Sequence record: OR062943.1
Length of the DNA: 64,000 bases
Direction: 5' to 3' (one strand)
DNA from: Escherichia phage 241Ecol014PP
Shown here: piece after piece, positions 23,550-29,846 of the stretch
How positions within the stretch are numbered: the first letter of the stretch is position 1
Layout: each line of letters starts with the position of its first letter
Translations under genes and position numbers: made by a program
Notes under the pieces: model-generated
Told to the model about the DNA's origin: nothing
Seen by the model: only the letters and a program-made list of their open reading frames with translations
The model's database searches: none

Positions 23550-25031
23550 TTACTTGGCGTACTCGATTAATTCCACAGTTTTCCCAAAGCTAGGGATATA
23601 ATTTTTATTATACCCTTCAGTGAGAACCCATAAAGTATCGTACTTTTTCCACTTATTGTCAACAGCCTTTTGTTCAAAGTTATGCTCAAAGTATAGGTCG
23701 GTCAGGACGATGACATCTTTTGCATTCGGTATGTTGGCATCCAGATACTCGAACACGCAAGCAGCTGTTGTGCCCCATGTTGAGTGGACCTCATAGTTGA
23801 TCATCTCATCTATGTTACCGCGAGTGTATACTTTGACCTCTCCAACCTCGGTTGACCAACAGAACATCGTAACCTTAAACTCTTTATACAGATTGCACAA
23901 TCCGGTGATTTCATTGAACATTTTCTTTAAAGTTCTTTGAGATATCGAGCCAGAAACGTCTAAAGCTACAACAATATCTATAGTGTTTTCAGGATTACGA
24001 CCGGGAACAATAACGTGCTGGTTCTTGTTTATAGCCCCAACTTTTCGCATTGTGCTGGTCAAAGAACCAGATCGGCGACCAGGTTTTCTGTAGGTCAGTT
24101 CAGCCTTTCGTTTAGACAACATGCGTTGCTTAATAATGTCTATATAGTTGATTACAGGCTTACCTCTGTTCTTGACAAACTCACGCACCGCCTCAGGGCA
24201 ACGACCTCCGGAAGCTTGCATTGCTGCCTCCAGCATGTCACCAGAGTCCTGCATGGCCTGATCTTTATCAGATTGGCTGATTACAGGTTGTGGCTGATCA
24301 TATCCCAGAGCCTTTCCAAGATCATCACTGGTGCCACCGTTCCCACTCATGTGATCATCGGTTTGTCGCTTATCCCCTTGAGAGTTCTCACCTTTACCGC
24401 TCTTACTTTTACCGTTATTCTGATCTCTTTGCTTATCAAGAACTGCATAGACGTTCTCAGCAATCCACCCATGAAACTTCATGTCGCAGTAGCAGCTGGC
24501 TAAGAAGCCAAAAGGCTTACCTTTCACAAACGTAGTGCTTTTCCCCTTCGGGAAGAAAACACAAGGGGGCTTGCTAAAGTCAACCACAAGACCTGTGTTG
24601 ATAACGTGATCACAAGCAATATTGAACAGTTCCGGCTCAAAGCTTTTGCCACGGACCAGGTGATCACAGATAATATGCCCCACCTCATGTGACAGAAGGA
24701 AAGCCACCTCTTTCACAGATTTGGGGGAATAGAAAACTTCAGCCATCTCAAACTGCTCGCCAGTTAGAGAGGCCTTAAGAATAGCCTTGCGTTCATCAGC
24801 CAACCCCATAATGAACTCAGGACTGTAATAGATGCGTTTATGGTCGGTTGCCATGGTGGAGCACCATGTGTGGTTTTCTACGAACTGTAACCCTGACAGC
24901 AGTGTGCCATAAAACGGCAGCTTTTCAAGGAGATACATACGTGCAGCCTGTAACATTCTCAGGGCATCATCTTTCTGTGAGGCAATGATTTCTGAACTTC
25001 TGCTATCCATTAAAACTCCAGAAGGGGCCAT
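23550..25031 (-). CDS. vWA-domain protein with N-terminal HExxH metallopeptidase-like motif
   Basis: 493 aa; LSHEVGHIICDH (HExxH) in N-half; C-half VVALDVSGSISQ MIDAS-type motif. Confidence 0.55.
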   Translation of the reverse strand: MAPSGVLMDSRSSEIIASQKDDALRMLQAARMYLLEKLPFYGTLLSGLQFVENHTWCSTMATDHKRIYYSPEFIMGLADERKAILKASLTGEQFEMAEVFYSPKSVKEVAFLLSHEVGHIICDHLVRGKSFEPELFNIACDHVINTGLVVDFSKPPCVFFPKGKSTTFVKGKPFGFLASCYCDMKFHGWIAENVYAVLDKQRDQNNGKSKSGKGENSQGDKRQTDDHMSGNGGTSDDLGKALGYDQPQPVISQSDKDQAMQDSGDMLEAAMQASGGRCPEAVREFVKNRGKPVINYIDIIKQRMLSKRKAELTYRKPGRRSGSLTSTMRKVGAINKNQHVIVPGRNPENTIDIVVALDVSGSISQRTLKKMFNEITGLCNLYKEFKVTMFCWSTEVGEVKVYTRGNIDEMINYEVHSTWGTTAACVFEYLDANIPNAKDVIVLTDLYFEHNFEQKAVDNKWKKYDTLWVLTEGYNKNYIPSFGKTVELIEYAK

Positions 25032-25043
25032 TGGCCCCTGTTA

Positions 25044-26087
25044 TTATTTAACGTGTTTGAAAATACCTGCCAACTCGGTCATTGTCATGCGGGTGGTCTT
25101 CATAAGATCTGTCATAGCTTTCTCCATAATTGGGGATACTACCATAAAGTTTCCTTTAGTGAAACCTTTATTCCAGTCGGTCACTAACAGGGGTTTAAGT
25201 CCAGCTCCGAGACGTTCACCAGTTAAAGCACAGCATTTGCGAATATACAAACTCTTAAATTGGCTGAACGACAGATCAACCTTCATACCTGCATCGTAGA
25301 ACGTTTGACAATAGAAAGTGTAAGCCTTAGCAACCTCAACATCATCAGGCAGTGCAGGAACCTCTTCTGCAATCTCCTCTTCGACCTCCTGAGGCTCTTT
25401 TTCCTCTTCAGAGTTCTGTTCTTCAATTTCTTCTGTCACAGTTTCGTTTACGATGTCTGAAATGTGTTTGTTGGCTGCACGATCAGCCATGAAATTTTTA
25501 AAGTCCTGCATTGGTGACATATCTTCTTCCTCTTCGTCAAAAAGTGCTAGTTTATCTTCTTCTGTCCCGTATTGCAAGATGAAATCTTCAAAAGTATAAT
25601 CACCTTTCAATTTCTCCATACGCTCTTCGCTCAGGTGGAGCATCATCTGCTGGACAATTTTTCGATCAGTTTCGTCTTTAATCAAGACTGCAGTCTTTTT
25701 ATCTACCAGACAGTCCTTCAGAGCGTTGCACCTCAACCCTACCACACAACAATTATCAATTGCGTAAGGACCTTCATCATCTATCCGCTCCAGAGATGGG
25801 TAGAAAGGATTTCCCAGTCCGTTTTCATCTGTGTGCGTGTCGAAAGGTATAAGGGTATAGTCGCATACCCCTTCTCCTAAAAGTTTTTTACCAAATAGGA
25901 GGTATTCTTCCCACGACAGTTCGAACTCTATATCTCGTTTCCGTGCATTATTCTTTTTGCGTCTATATTTTTTGAGCAGGCGCTCTAACTCTTCTGTTGT
26001 ATAATATTTTTCAAGATTCATGAGTTGTCTCTCGTGCTCTGTAAGTGAAGAAATCGTATCAATTGTCTCAACAGATGTCAACATCAA
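25044..26087 (-). CDS. HNH_3-like nuclease-domain protein (two tandem modules, acidic linker)
   Basis: 347 aa; PSLERIDDEGPYAIDNC..CN motif and a weaker second copy; Glu-rich linker; likely ATG at 26084. Confidence 0.35.
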   Translation of the reverse strand: MMLTSVETIDTISSLTEHERQLMNLEKYYTTEELERLLKKYRRKKNNARKRDIEFELSWEEYLLFGKKLLGEGVCDYTLIPFDTHTDENGLGNPFYPSLERIDDEGPYAIDNCCVVGLRCNALKDCLVDKKTAVLIKDETDRKIVQQMMLHLSEERMEKLKGDYTFEDFILQYGTEEDKLALFDEEEEDMSPMQDFKNFMADRAANKHISDIVNETVTEEIEEQNSEEEKEPQEVEEEIAEEVPALPDDVEVAKAYTFYCQTFYDAGMKVDLSFSQFKSLYIRKCCALTGERLGAGLKPLLVTDWNKGFTKGNFMVVSPIMEKAMTDLMKTTRMTMTELAGIFKHVK

Positions 26088-26094
26088 GAACGTG

Positions 26095-26123
26095 TTGACT
26101 TTACTCTAAATCTCCGATATAGT
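26095..26123 (+). promoter_or_regulatory. sigma70-like promoter in divergent intergenic region
   Basis: TTGACT, 17-nt spacer, TATAGT; 40 nt upstream of ATG at 26164. Confidence 0.5.
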
Positions 26124-26163
26124 GCACCCATTCGAAAGAAAACCAACATAGGAGCACTCACTC

Positions 26164-27063
26164 ATGGCAAATCTTAACAGTTTTAGTACTCGGTGGCAAC
26201 AGGATATAACAACCAATCTCTCGGCTGGAGACATTCTTTCTGCAATTTACGAGGCTTTAGATGCTAAAGCTACTTCAAAAGCGGTTTGTACCAACCCCCT
26301 AATCCCTGTAGTGATGAAGGTGATTGAGCGTAGATTGGTATCTGGGTCTGATAAGTGGACATATTTAGATAATGAAGGACACACCTATTCCAATGGGTAT
26401 GTCGATATAAAAGTAGAATACGCGGTATCATACCGCCGGAGCGGTTCTGTAACTTTCAACTTCTCTGGAGGTTTTCGATCTCTGGCTACCTCACCTTTTG
26501 TTTCCTCAGAGGAGAAGTATGAGCTGCCATTTCTTTGGATGATGGCTAACGCGACAGGAAAAACCCCCGTTAGCATCCGAGTAGAATACAACTACAACGG
26601 ATCTAGTAAGATCTATGCCGAAAGTGTCTCAGCAAGTTTTTATTTTGTGATGGGGGATGGAATCCTCAAACATATAAAGATGTGTGATATGCATGATGTT
26701 ATAAATGAAGTGACTGATAAGAATGTTCTAGTGAAAGACCTCAACAATTTTTATACACCCGGAGACTATTACGTCAGCCGTCCACTGTGCATCTTTAATG
26801 CCGCACATCCTCTAGGTGAGTATTTGATCGCCAATAGCGATATTGCCAATAACCGCTTCGAGGTAGCAAGAGTTCAGAATGAGGTATTGACATCTTGTAA
26901 GAGCGGTGATAAGTTTACCGAAGAAGAGATGGGTGTTTTAGAAATGATGGGATATAAGTGTAGCCTTTGGGTAGATGAGGTGTTCAATGATTGCATCTAT
27001 GGACAGGATATTTACCCATTAAAGAAGTATACTGATTCCAGTTTAATTTACGCGGAGATTTGA
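26164..27063 (+). CDS. hypothetical protein
   Basis: 299-aa ORF, first gene of + strand block. Confidence 0.45.
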   Translation: MANLNSFSTRWQQDITTNLSAGDILSAIYEALDAKATSKAVCTNPLIPVVMKVIERRLVSGSDKWTYLDNEGHTYSNGYVDIKVEYAVSYRRSGSVTFNFSGGFRSLATSPFVSSEEKYELPFLWMMANATGKTPVSIRVEYNYNGSSKIYAESVSASFYFVMGDGILKHIKMCDMHDVINEVTDKNVLVKDLNNFYTPGDYYVSRPLCIFNAAHPLGEYLIANSDIANNRFEVARVQNEVLTSCKSGDKFTEEEMGVLEMMGYKCSLWVDEVFNDCIYGQDIYPLKKYTDSSLIYAEI

Positions 27064-27338
27064 CTATGATGAAGTCATGTGGTAGTGTATATTATGTTGG
27101 TGAGAATGTTCAGGCAGATAGTGTGTGGAAATCCATTAAGTCCACCACCGATGATGCCTTTCTGAGCGGGTTATGTTTTCCCAGCCCAGGGGACACTCTC
27201 CCTTACCCTGGAGATTTTGTTGTCAACAAGATGGACGGTTATACCGTGTGCCTGATGGTTGAAAAAATCTTTTTAGACACTAGACACAATCACCGTCTTG
27301 TGTTAAAATTTCAAGAATGTAAAATGACAATTGCCTAA
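27060..27338 (+). CDS. hypothetical protein
   Basis: 92-aa ORF, 4-nt overlap with upstream gene. Confidence 0.35.
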   Translation: MTMMKSCGSVYYVGENVQADSVWKSIKSTTDDAFLSGLCFPSPGDTLPYPGDFVVNKMDGYTVCLMVEKIFLDTRHNHRLVLKFQECKMTIA

Positions 27339-27351
27339 GGAGACCTTGCCG

Positions 27352-27708
27352 ATGTCTAAAGTTACTTATCGTGCAGCTATTTACTGCAATGAACACCCAA
27401 TCAATAATGATGGTCACTGCCTTTTTAAAGAAAATCAATTGGGCTGTATTGTCCTCCCTGATGAAGGGGAAGGTTATCTGATTGCATTGACAGGGTTTGA
27501 ACCTGAGGCTCTGGAAGCCAATCTGGACTACCTGGTAGAAGAGGGTGCTGCAGACCTGGTTGCCAATGGCCTCTCCATAAGCCTTGACGAAGTGGAGCGC
27601 TTCATGGGTAATTACCGTGTAGTGCGTGAGTTTACTATCGAGGTTGAAACTCCAGAGTGGGGCAGCCCTGAAACTAATGTCGAAGAAAAAGAAGAGGAGG
27701 TAGAATAA
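27352..27708 (+). CDS. hypothetical acidic protein
   Basis: ATG at 27352, 8 nt after AGGAGA; track ORF begins earlier at TTG 27331. Confidence 0.4.
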   Translation: MSKVTYRAAIYCNEHPINNDGHCLFKENQLGCIVLPDEGEGYLIALTGFEPEALEANLDYLVEEGAADLVANGLSISLDEVERFMGNYRVVREFTIEVETPEWGSPETNVEEKEEEVE

Positions 27709-27965
27709 TGAAAGTGCAGATCTTGACTAATGCCGAGAAGATGTTTATTGAAGATACACCTTTTGAAGCTGGTGAGCTACAGTTCGTTTATTTTGTTGAC
27801 TTAGATAAGGTGTTTCCTGCACTGAATCTAGGTTTTGATGAAGTTCCTCATAAGGTTTTGTGCCAAGTTGTTCGTGCCTTAGCGGCAGAGGGGGAGTTCC
27901 GCACCCTTCAAGATGTCCAGACCTACGGGTACCTTGAACTACAACGAGAAGAAGAGGTGGACTGA
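27708..27965 (+). CDS. hypothetical protein
   Basis: 85-aa ORF with GAGGAGG RBS. Confidence 0.4.
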   Translation: MKVQILTNAEKMFIEDTPFEAGELQFVYFVDLDKVFPALNLGFDEVPHKVLCQVVRALAAEGEFRTLQDVQTYGYLELQREEEVD

Positions 27966-27967
27966 TA

Positions 27968-28348
27968 ATGGCTCAGTGGAAGACAACAGTTGACCTTCAT
28001 GATCAGTGGTTAGGACGCATCACTGAAGACGGGAAGCTAGTGGAGTGGGACAATAAGCATGTTAGCGAGTTGGCAAGTATTGTGGCTGGTAAGTTACGCT
28101 CCAAGTTCCCTGAACAACTGGATCCTGATAGTTCAAAGTTCGATCCTGAGTTGGAGGATGTTGTATACTACTTCGATACCGTGGATGACTACGATGCGTG
28201 GTTTGCAGCACGGGAGCTTTACCCACAAGGCTCTGCTATGCGCCAGATGGAAGAAGATTATCCTCCGTGTGAGCAATTCAATAGTGCAATGACTTGCCTC
28301 TATGATTGGGCAGATAAGAACCTTGTCTGGATTCGGACTGCATTTTAG
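27968..28348 (+). CDS. hypothetical protein
   Basis: 126-aa ORF. Confidence 0.4.
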   Translation: MAQWKTTVDLHDQWLGRITEDGKLVEWDNKHVSELASIVAGKLRSKFPEQLDPDSSKFDPELEDVVYYFDTVDDYDAWFAARELYPQGSAMRQMEEDYPPCEQFNSAMTCLYDWADKNLVWIRTAF

Positions 28349-28392
28349 TGGGCAGGAATGGCGGCAAGGATGCTGCTTAAGGAGTAGTAGAG

Positions 28393-28662
28393 ATGTTATA
28401 CCAGCAATATGAACTTCGTGCAGAAAAAGAGTTAAATTTTGACAAAGATATTCACAGATATTATTATGGGAAAGTTAGAGGGCAAGCAAGAAAGTGTACT
28501 CCAACACTCTTTTATGCCAGCAGACGACTAGCGCCAGAAGAGGCAACAGCAGAAAGGGTTGCGTTCAACTGGAAAGTCACGTATGATATTGACAGATCCG
28601 ATGTGATATCTGTTTTGGAAAACTTTGAAAACACTTACACACAAGTAGAGGACTTTTACTAA
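28393..28662 (+). CDS. hypothetical protein
   Basis: 89-aa ORF, AGGAG RBS. Confidence 0.4.
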   Translation: MLYQQYELRAEKELNFDKDIHRYYYGKVRGQARKCTPTLFYASRRLAPEEATAERVAFNWKVTYDIDRSDVISVLENFENTYTQVEDFY

Positions 28663-29846
28663 TGTCAAGAAACGTATTCGAAAGTGGTCAAATCACTGTC
28701 CGTGAGTTGCCAGCTATTATTCAGTTTGCCCAACGTCATAGCCGATCTGTCCTAATTTTGGGACCAATGGGTGTGGGTAAAAGCCAGGTGATGAAGCAGA
28801 TCGCTGATAATATGTTCGGTGAGCGAGATGACAACCTTATTGACGTGCGACTGTCAGATAAAGATCCTGCCGACTTATCTGGGCTACCTATCCCTGTAGA
28901 AGCGGATGGAACTACACGTACAGTGTTTGCAATTCCAGAATTTTGGCCTGCGGATCCTGACTGGAGCGGAATTATCTTTCTGGATGAGCTCACTCATGCA
29001 GATAACTACCTGCAAAAGGTTGCAATGCAAATTATGCTTGACCACAAGTGCGGCACCTATGCATTCCCTAAGGGTTCTGTTTTTGTGGCTGCGGGTAACC
29101 GTTCTACAGATGGTGCGGTTCTTTCGGCGCTCGAAGCCCCTCTGGCTAACCGTTTTATCATTGTAGAGGTTACAAGCAATGCAGAGGTGTTTATTGAGGA
29201 CTACGCATTCCTTAATGGGGTGCATTCCTCTGTAATTGGATATTTGAAAAGAGTTCCCTCAGCTATCGATAATTATGAGGCCATGGCTGAGATTAATTGT
29301 CCATCTTTTGCCACACCGCGATCTTGGGTTGCTGCATCTGATATCTTGCACGATTTTGACAGCGGTATTATTTCTGACGCTATGGCCCGTGTTCTTCTGC
29401 AAGGTGCTATTGGTCACACTGCAGCGGTAGAGATCTGGACCTACCACACCAAGAAGCGCAACTTACCGGAAATTGGTCGGATTATGGCAGGGGGTTGCAA
29501 AGAATACGTCGGTCCTAAACAGCCAGACATCTTGTGGATTCTTGGATCTGAAGGTTGTATCGCTATTCGTAATATGATGGAAAATGCAAGTATCTCAGAC
29601 GAAGATCTTGTCAGCTGCGTGGCAAACTTCCTTGATTTCCTTTGGGAAAACTTCAAGGACGAGAACCGAGATTTTGTATTCTCAGTCTTTATGGCGATGA
29701 TGAAACCTAATGCCTTAGGAAATGCCTTGCTTATCGGTAAAGGGCGTGACAAGATCGTTGCTCAACTGATCAAAGCGTATCCAAACCTGATGAAGATTGT
29801 AAAAGAGTTTGGTGAAGAGTTTAGCGCCATTTTAGCTAAAGCTTGA
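28662..29846 (+). CDS. MoxR-like AAA+ ATPase
   Basis: Walker A GPMGVGKS, Walker B IIFLDELTHA, 394 aa. Confidence 0.6.
   Translation: MSRNVFESGQITVRELPAIIQFAQRHSRSVLILGPMGVGKSQVMKQIADNMFGERDDNLIDVRLSDKDPADLSGLPIPVEADGTTRTVFAIPEFWPADPDWSGIIFLDELTHADNYLQKVAMQIMLDHKCGTYAFPKGSVFVAAGNRSTDGAVLSALEAPLANRFIIVEVTSNAEVFIEDYAFLNGVHSSVIGYLKRVPSAIDNYEAMAEINCPSFATPRSWVAASDILHDFDSGIISDAMARVLLQGAIGHTAAVEIWTYHTKKRNLPEIGRIMAGGCKEYVGPKQPDILWILGSEGCIAIRNMMENASISDEDLVSCVANFLDFLWENFKDENRDFVFSVFMAMMKPNALGNALLIGKGRDKIVAQLIKAYPNLMKIVKEFGEEFSAILAKA

Follow-up and report, generated by a model that had tools for sequence, protein, structure and literature searches.

Do a MoxR-type AAA+ ATPase and a metallopeptidase protein with a von Willebrand factor A (vWA) domain still belong together when their genes stand on opposite strands with other genes between them? 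The question is raised by a 64,000-nucleotide stretch of Escherichia phage 241Ecol014PP (OR062943.1; the whole stretch analysed is called the window below), a Vequintavirus, that is, an rV5-like coliphage of the Vequintavirinae. An earlier note on this DNA had placed the two genes apart and divergent, and our check of the open reading frames (ORFs) agrees exactly in coordinates and strands: the vWA ORF (23550–25031, minus strand) encodes 493 amino acids, the ATPase ORF (28662–29846, plus strand) encodes 394, and the two are divergently oriented at a spacing of 3,631 bp. In this study, the domain content of both proteins, the conservation of their motifs, the placement of their homologues in phages and bacteria and the geometry of the locus are described. 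The two genes probably encode two halves of one conserved machine, whose physical interaction we infer, and a single inversion explains how they came to be separated. The features of both genes are as follows.

23550..25031, minus strand: gene for a zincin-like metallopeptidase plus vWA protein (DUF2201_N/DUF2201), rV5 ORF12(+13), from the ORF and Pfam
24675..24689, minus strand: HEVGH, putative zinc site, residues 115–119, invariant in 41 diverse homologues
23562..23984, minus strand: vWA domain, residues about 350–490
23946–23960, minus strand: DVSGS of the metal-ion-dependent adhesion site (MIDAS), residues 358–362
23769–23774, minus strand: GT of the MIDAS
23697–23702, minus strand: TD of the MIDAS
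28662..29846, plus strand: gene for a MoxR-type AAA+ ATPase, rV5 ORF4 ('MoxR ATPase'), from the ORF, motifs, fold and profile
28761–28784, plus strand: Walker A, GPMGVGKS
28884–28931, plus strand: predicted helix-2-insert hairpin (model, DSSP)
28974–28988, plus strand: Walker B, IFLDE
about 29040–29066, plus strand: predicted pre-sensor-1 hairpin (model, DSSP)
29088–29102, plus strand: AAGNR
29139–29156, plus strand: PLANRF
29307–29327, plus strand: FATPRSW

The minus-strand product carries two Pfam domains above their cut-offs, DUF2201_N 'putative metallopeptidase' (98.9 bits against 23.2; 5e-28) and DUF2201 'VWA-like' (43.6 bits against 26.4; 4e-11). H115, E116 and H119 of its HExxH motif are invariant in the 41 homologues, which reach down to about 20% identity, so that the catalytic glutamate is kept; H124 and D141 are likewise invariant and are candidate third zinc ligands. 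The MIDAS is complete (DxSGS..GT..TD), with D358, S360, S362, T421 and D445 invariant over the same range. A further conserved segment, RPxRR, lies at residues 316–320. Fold searches with the model (predicted local distance difference test, pLDDT, 83.7) find a vWA (Rossmann-like) fold, and the VWA of NorD is among the matches of this domain. The N-terminal domain gave only marginal matches in a profile search (minigluzincin MJ1213 at E 0.01; BepA, HtpX and M48 at E 0.1–0.9), and Pfam Peptidase_M48 stays under its cut-off at E 0.011. A PDB search with the protein as a single sequence returned no matches.

In the plus-strand product, the motifs for Walker A, Walker B, sensor 1, the arginine finger and sensor 2 vary little or not at all among 34 homologues, and phrog_1297 matches the protein at 8e-111. 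The secondary structure assigned by DSSP to its AlphaFold model (pLDDT 84.2) includes strands 75–81 and 84–90 between beta2 and beta3 and a short hairpin, 128–134, before beta4. The top 18 PDB matches of the model in Foldseek consist of NorQ chains, those in complex with the NorD VWA among them, and CbbQ2 (E 1e-8 to 8e-7); AAA+ proteins outside the MoxR family rank after them. The family profile has midasin as its best PDB match (3.5e-12), and a single-sequence PDB search yielded P-loop matches only (ClpB, ClpC, p97). Relatives at about 35% identity (E ~1e-44) carry AAA_3 (the MoxR family), AAA_5 and sometimes bpMoxR, and one of them, P0047, lies above both gathering scores on rescanning (AAA_3 31.7 against 27; AAA_5 26.9 against 22). 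By the Pfam scores of its relatives, the midasin profile match, the structural matches and both predicted hairpins, the window ATPase is thus assigned to the MoxR-like members of the helix-2-insert clade, and by analogy it would work as a hexamer. NCBIfam gave no meaningful matches; PADLOC-DB gave none for the vWA protein and only P-loop-level ones for the ATPase (E>0.003). The suggestion of the earlier note that the pair serves processing or remodelling is compatible with the invariant HExxH, MIDAS and AAA+ motifs, as far as sequence goes.

The two genes travel together. The statement that a MoxR ATPase usually has an adjacent vWA partner is borne out, as the usual layout in relatives is an ATPase gene followed at once by the vWA gene in the same orientation. 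A search of IMG/VR from the ATPase side returned 80 loci, 70 of them informative (nine end too early, and one has a radical-SAM-like ORF inserted before the contig end). DUF2201 stands immediately downstream of the ATPase and on the same strand in 68 of these 70, at a median gap of 141 bp; the remaining two, rV5-like and Seunavirus/Mydovirus-like contigs, show the divergent split. Most of the 68 adjacent loci are 32–36% identical to the query and possibly represent one clade, and independent lineages were therefore checked one by one. The pair is adjacent in N4 (gp24, the ATPase, then gp25; 167-bp gap), 121Q (563/564), cyanophage S-TIM5, the PBS1-like Bacillus phage Internexus (whose ATPase is mislabelled 'transcription factor'), Certrevirus CR8 (gp116 then gp117; 67-bp gap), one uncultured phage contig examined singly and the chromosome of Sulfurivermis fontis (AP018724; an AAA/AAA_5 gene, then the DUF2201 gene). 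Profiles built on the window proteins match N4 gp24/gp25 (6e-59, 6e-85) and 121Q 563/564 (4e-80, 5e-104).

Searching in the other direction, from N4 gp25 or 121Q gp564, the ATPase was found upstream on the same strand in 22 of 22 loci, six of which (L184, L189–L193) have 1.3–4.1 kb of other genes between the two. In PA5oct (L091 7141–9902) a homing endonuclease separates ATPase and vWA genes that are still co-oriented, and the inserts of 1–4 kb in some jumbo-phage relatives always leave the pair in the same orientation. The insert ORF at L032 2961–3983 has a CxxxCxxC motif and is called radical-SAM-like by that motif. Of 50,697 phage records searched by tblastn, 685 have the vWA gene and 812 have the ATPase gene, and counts by host genus are nearly equal for both proteins. 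Both genes are present in Vequintavirinae, N4-like Schitoviridae, jumbo phages of the 121Q and PA5oct types, S-TIM5, PBS1-like phages, uncultured viral contigs and bacteria, and the core of 25 N4-like phages comprises 14 genes, gp24 and gp25 among them (PMC4193335). The earlier note had held joint function to be in doubt if the genes did not co-occur in relatives; they occur together in every lineage sampled. Within the 64-kb window there is no second member of either family and no other vWA/MIDAS candidate beside the ATPase, so that a local alternative partner is rejected. In a bacterial sample of 80 loci, mostly metagenome-assembled genomes, an adjacent ATPase–DUF2201 pair occurs in 47.

Two observations on the neighbourhoods may be added. 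In S-TIM5 an Hsp20 gene lies directly upstream of the pair (L094 5524–5958), which would suit a chaperone theme. A gene of pyrimidine metabolism is found 0–3 kb from the pair in four unrelated lineages, which may reflect just placement in a middle-gene module: N4 has a dCTP deaminase directly after gp25 (L090 12313–12819), and thymidylate synthase is near the pair in 121Q (L092 11015–11944), S-TIM5 (L094 9667–10338) and the uncultured contig (L004/L005 9578–10462).

Set against this usual state, with the ATPase gene first and the vWA gene next in the same orientation, the divergent layout of the window is unusual for the family. The earlier note had called the arrangement an unusual split. This holds for the family at large; the split is, however, no speciality of this phage but a trait of its lineage, fixed across four genera and in over 100 sequenced phages. 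The window shares one alternative order with Hena1 (Henunavirus), Mydo (Mydovirus) and EspYZU12 (Seunavirus): one arm carries rIIA, SleB and the ATPase gene, and across the promoter the other arm carries the Srd-like gene and DUF2201. In CR8 the adjacent pair occupies the rightward arm of the divergent promoter region and SleB the leftward arm. Inverting the block between the promoter and the 3' end of the ATPase gene converts one order into the other, and one inversion breakpoint lies in the ATPase–DUF2201 spacer. One inversion explains the split, which is common to Vequintavirus, Seunavirus, Mydovirus and Henunavirus, and the split is the derived state because all outgroups have the genes adjacent. 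An ancestral adjacent pair, ATPase followed by vWA gene, would have been parted when the block from the bidirectional promoter to the ATPase 3' end flipped in the common ancestor of the four genera. In the literature we found no paper that links the two genes in Vequintavirinae and none that describes the inversion. The inversion amounts to a natural experiment, in which operon adjacency proves dispensable for keeping both genes intact.

What the inversion left between the genes bears on whether they can still be expressed together, and the features of this region are as follows.

25023..25039, minus strand: GC-rich perfect hairpin AGGGGCC-AAT-GGCCCCT, after the Srd-like stop codon and before the vWA gene; first in-frame ATG inside it
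25044..26021, minus strand: Srd-like anti-sigma gene, rV5 ORF11, first of the leftward unit (matches to PHROG 3118, 4592 and 1400; rV5/MaxBurger annotation)
26053..26123, both strands: back-to-back sigma-70-like promoters; rV5 promoter P11 is annotated here
26081–26053, minus strand: promoter TTGACA-17-TACGAT
26077–26099, both strands: inverted repeat GTCAACA-N9-TGTTGAC, holding the -35 boxes of both promoters
26095–26123, plus strand: promoter TTGACT-17-TATAGT
26164..28662, plus strand: six ORFs, rV5 ORF10 to ORF5, from the promoter to the ATPase gene; no Pfam domains

Both -35 hexamers lie in the inverted repeat, and the bidirectional promoter is therefore symmetric; from its sequence, it could be bound by a single dimeric regulator. 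The GC skew changes sign in the same region (26053–26123). The promoter scan, taken as a whole, showed no enrichment over shuffled sequences (16 sites against 13.6 +/- 4.4), and from it only the intergenic back-to-back pair is used, which agrees with the published rV5 annotation. At this place the rV5 authors map bidirectional promoters, and from here they have two transcription units start, 10-1-238-164 and 11-26, which are separate from the late genes 27-66 (PMC3606486). One gene of the pair is about 1.1 kb and the other about 2.5 kb from the bidirectional promoter. Both would thus belong to pre-late units that start at one point, and their co-expression could persist without adjacency.

In the leftward unit, the Srd-like gene (start at MNLEKYY) is upstream of the vWA gene. 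The true start of the latter is probably the second ATG, at 25010, because this is preceded by a GGAG ribosome-binding site and the first ATG (25031) falls within the hairpin; downstream of the hairpin come a T-rich stretch, the GGAG and then the ATG. The resulting protein of 486 amino acids agrees in length with the database representative P0121 and with the MaxBurger annotation. The hairpin could, by its sequence and position, be an attenuator or RNA-processing site between the Srd-like and vWA genes. In the rightward unit, the stop codon of ORF5 (28393–28662, 89 aa) overlaps the start of the ATPase gene (TAATG), which suggests translational coupling of the two; a small ORF overlapping the ATPase start is also seen in Hena1 and EspYZU12. 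ORF5 is phrog_13164, which is labelled 'ATPase' though the protein is far too small. The ORF at 26164–27063 is a 'putative alpha 1-3 fucosyltransferase' in many records; it has no Pfam match and belongs to a PHROG of unknown function, and the label derives from a weak resemblance, noted long ago, to the C-terminus of bovine FUT9.

Labels of this kind also attach to the vWA gene. Equivalents of rV5 ORF12 are entered as 'putative metallopeptidase', 'VWA-like domain containing protein', 'HNH endonuclease', 'anti-sigma factor', 'DNA repair ATPase' or 'hypothetical'. If the database labels were right, the minus-strand gene would be an HNH endonuclease, an anti-sigma factor or a DNA-repair ATPase; GenBank and RefSeq records do bear such labels, and phrog_1314, the DUF2201 metallopeptidase–vWA family, carries the name 'HNH endonuclease', as does PHROG 3118 (Srd-like). 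However, a Pfam scan yields only DUF2201_N and DUF2201 for the vWA protein and finds no HNH domain either in it or in the Srd-like protein (25044–26087). Its fold is vWA, and it has no P-loop of the form G-x4-GK[ST]. These three identities are contradicted by the domain and fold results, and there is practically no chance that any of them is correct. The name 'HNH endonuclease' has spread in RefSeq phages (NC_011041; NC_008720, N4 gp25; NC_025447, 121Q gp564; NC_024354, CR8 gp117), and this systematic mis-annotation obscures the pair there.

After the split, the two genes might have become functionally independent in Vequintavirus, or one of them might be decaying, so that the shared ancestry is only historical. 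Opposite strands and a distance of 3.6 kb speak for this, as does the fact that some bacterial ATPase homologues function without DUF2201. So does the GenBank record of rV5 itself (DQ832317, L001 4548–6009), which has one extra T after codon A424 compared with the window (at about 23762) and MaxBurger. The resulting +1 frameshift, just after the MIDAS threonine and within the vWA domain, splits the vWA gene into 'ORF12' and 'ORF13'; its cause is either a sequencing error of long standing or a naturally truncated vWA in the laboratory strain. The retention of the genes argues the other way. In all four genera with the split, and in the large majority of some 118 close relatives, both genes are intact and keep every catalytic and MIDAS residue. 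Both proteins are 99.0–99.7% identical to those of rV5 and the DNA is about 96% identical; protein identity (at least 99%) thus exceeds DNA identity, and purifying selection is therefore indicated. The two proteins have also diverged in parallel across genera (52/43, 50/46, 42/43 and 35/33%), and no alternative vWA partner is near the ATPase. We consider independence or decay very improbable. The 7.3-kb stretch around both genes is 96–97% identical to more than 100 rV5-like coliphages, among them rV5 and several BASEL phages. The same identity to E. coli rV5-like phages is found here in 16 records of the MG0656xx series (e.g. MG065654, MG065666, MG065661) that are named 'Campylobacter phage' with Campylobacter jejuni as host, which suggests mislabelled or contaminating phages.

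Several points weigh against the view that the genes encode one machine. Should the frameshift in the vWA domain of rV5 be genuine, the phage can do without the partner in the laboratory. The window ATPase falls under every Pfam AAA threshold (AAA_5 at 16.6 bits against 22; AAA_3 unreported). The N-terminal domain of its partner is only marginally similar to solved zincins (E 0.01–0.3), and its fold is without a match, since vWA matches dominated both fold searches. The timing of expression in Vequintavirus is read from gene position only, and for the phage members we infer the interaction, the ATPase activity and the proteolysis. In the bacterial sample, 26 of the 80 ATPase loci, mostly from Sulfurovum and other Campylobacterota, have no DUF2201 within 6 kb; DUF2201 is thus no obligatory companion of the ATPase subfamily, and the association is very strong in phages and not absolute for the subfamily. 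On the chromosome of Sulfurovum sp. CS9 (L133 4559–6948), a 462-aa protein without a Pfam domain overlaps the start of the ATPase homologue, which has AAA_3 at 38.1 bits. This protein was tried as a cryptic DUF2201 and rejected, since hhalign was negative and the two are unrelated; it may be a different partner of the Sulfurovum ATPase. Lastly, the compact vWA domain of DUF2201, as modelled, has no obvious counterpart of the NorD 'finger'.

How the two halves might work is suggested by analogy with NorQ–NorD, CbbQ–CbbO, RavA–ViaA, BchI–BchD and midasin. The ATPase, gp4, would be a hexameric MoxR-class AAA+ ring, and gp12 its dedicated partner, a MIDAS vWA domain fused to an N-terminal zincin-like HExxH domain. 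The vWA domain would dock on the ring; ATP hydrolysis would then remodel gp12, or a client held through the MIDAS metal site, or both, and the HExxH domain would cleave or otherwise process that client. In NorQD, cryo-electron microscopy shows the vWA finger entering the pore and the ATPase twisting a linker of the partner (PMC13036017); as no finger is evident in the DUF2201 vWA, docking may differ from that in NorQ–NorD. In a fully specified version, an ATP-gated, MIDAS-targeted protease, assembled in trans and co-regulated from the bidirectional promoter, would work ahead of the late phase on one particular client, be it a host factor or a replication or assembly intermediate of the phage; this version is doubtful as a whole. 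As for the client, a phage protein complex that is matured before or during assembly is a tentative candidate, a host protein cleaved in takeover or counter-defence is unlikely, and the insertion of metal into a phage or host enzyme is quite unlikely. In the literature we found no experimental report of peptide-bond hydrolysis by any DUF2201 protein, and no functional or expression data on phage DUF2201, on the MoxR protein of Vequintavirus/rV5, on the essentiality of N4 gp25 or on transcriptomes of Vequintavirinae.

These clients correspond to three roles that have to be weighed. In a virion-assembly role, the MoxR ring and its vWA co-chaperone would assemble a part of the tail or head while the peptidase trims structural proteins. 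Virion assembly with proteolytic processing was proposed for the jumbo-phage pair, with the MoxR/vWA proteins of Acidianus two-tailed virus as a precedent (Iyer et al., 2021; PMC7824862). The pair lies inside the structural module in 121Q and between Hsp20 and virion protein genes in S-TIM5, and four virion proteins are encoded beside the gp24/gp25 homologues of N4-like roseophages. The PA5oct ATPase bears the note 'ESI-MS/MS', and mass spectrometry of phAPEC6 virions lists a 49.5-kDa ATPase at the corresponding position. However, jumbo-phage particle proteomes also include thymidylate synthase and exonuclease, and detection of the ATPase may therefore be carry-over. Moreover, N4 gp24/gp25 are middle transcripts among replication genes, the window genes are in pre-late units by the Srd-like gene, rIIA and rIIB and far from late genes 27-66, and the main text on rV5 virion mass spectrometry gives only gp52, 53, 60, 61, 64 and 133 (PMC3606486). 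This role can be held only tentatively. It names a client, and so refines the reading of one two-part machine without replacing it.

The same early or pre-late location beside the Srd-like anti-sigma gene and rIIA/rIIB would suit a weapon directed at the host, an ATP-driven, MIDAS-targeted protease that cuts a host sigma factor, defence protein or envelope factor early in infection. N4 expresses the pair in its middle class, the catalytic glutamate of HExxH is invariant, and other phage zincins are probably aimed at host proteins (Iyer et al., 2021; PMC7824862). Such a role makes no sense on bacterial chromosomes, where the same pair stands in housekeeping-like contexts (thioredoxin, ferrochelatase, Lon), and conservation over phages of Bacillus, cyanobacteria and Proteobacteria runs counter to a host-specific target; PADLOC gave no matches either. 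We regard it as unlikely. A chaperone for metal insertion or cofactor maturation, as in NorQD, CoxDE, CbbQO and CobST, would have the HExxH domain hold a metal or deliver it to a client metalloenzyme, instead of cutting protein. The closest solved structures, NorQ/NorD, do insert non-haem iron, and in several lineages the pair lies 0–3 kb from genes of nucleotide metabolism (dCTP deaminase, thymidylate synthase). That linkage may only reflect middle-gene modules, the window has no such metabolic neighbour, and the invariant glutamate marks out a hydrolytic zincin rather than a simple metal carrier; a metal-insertion role seems rather improbable.

Taken alone, the window holds an ordinary, already annotated gene pair in a rearranged layout. 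The pair as such is widespread in phages and many bacteria and includes two genes from the core set of N4-like phages. If the fully specified version given above, doubtful as it is, were true, a core function unassigned for about 20 years would turn out to be an AAA+-coupled protease of a new kind, present in N4-like phages, in Vequintavirinae and in many jumbo phages. The BASEL collection includes rV5-like phages, such as MaxBurger, for which E. coli K-12 is a host, so the pair is genetically tractable there.

The same combination of MoxR ATPase and metallopeptidase–vWA protein has been described computationally in group 2.2 jumbo phages (Iyer et al., 2021, Viruses 13:63; PMC7824862), and the original annotation of N4 already pointed to similarity with a gene pair of Streptomyces coelicolor. 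The window genes are orthologues of this computationally recognized pair, and each has long been annotated in rV5-like genomes; the locus is therefore a known kind with an organizational twist and not a new system. Among the phages, 121Q gp563/gp564 are both homologous to the window proteins and share their architecture, a MoxR ATPase and an N-terminal HExxH–vWA fusion, but are adjacent and co-oriented in a structural module, whereas the window genes are 3.6 kb apart on opposite strands in the pre-late region. N4 gp24 (ATPase) and gp25 (vWFA) are homologous at only about 23–27% identity. In N4, as in the window genome, the pair is expressed before the late phase, by gene position in the latter, and has rIIA/rIIB nearby; in N4 the vWA gene directly follows the ATPase gene, and the phage's own RNAPII transcribes both as middle genes. 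The bacterial DUF2201 operons, as in Sulfurivermis fontis (AP018724), have the same two-gene unit, order and architecture as the phage pair; there the vWA protein is about 22% identical to that of the window and the context is chromosomal. Beyond DUF2201, NorQ–NorD of Paracoccus denitrificans (PDB 9qh4, 9qh6), a MoxR ATPase and a vWA partner that insert FeB into nitric oxide reductase, follows the same two-protein logic, and NorQ is the best structural match of the window ATPase (E 1e-8; template-modelling score 0.62–0.66 on the target) at an identity of only 16–18%. NorD, however, has no HExxH domain and inserts a finger into the NorQ pore, and its client, cNOR, is absent from phages. CbbQ–CbbO, RavA–ViaA, BchI–BchD/CobS–CobT and midasin (Rea1) are further machines that join a helix-2-insert AAA+ ATPase to a MIDAS/vWA partner, and none of these partners has a zincin domain; their clients, Rubisco, respiratory complexes, tetrapyrroles and pre-60S particles, are foreign to phage biology.

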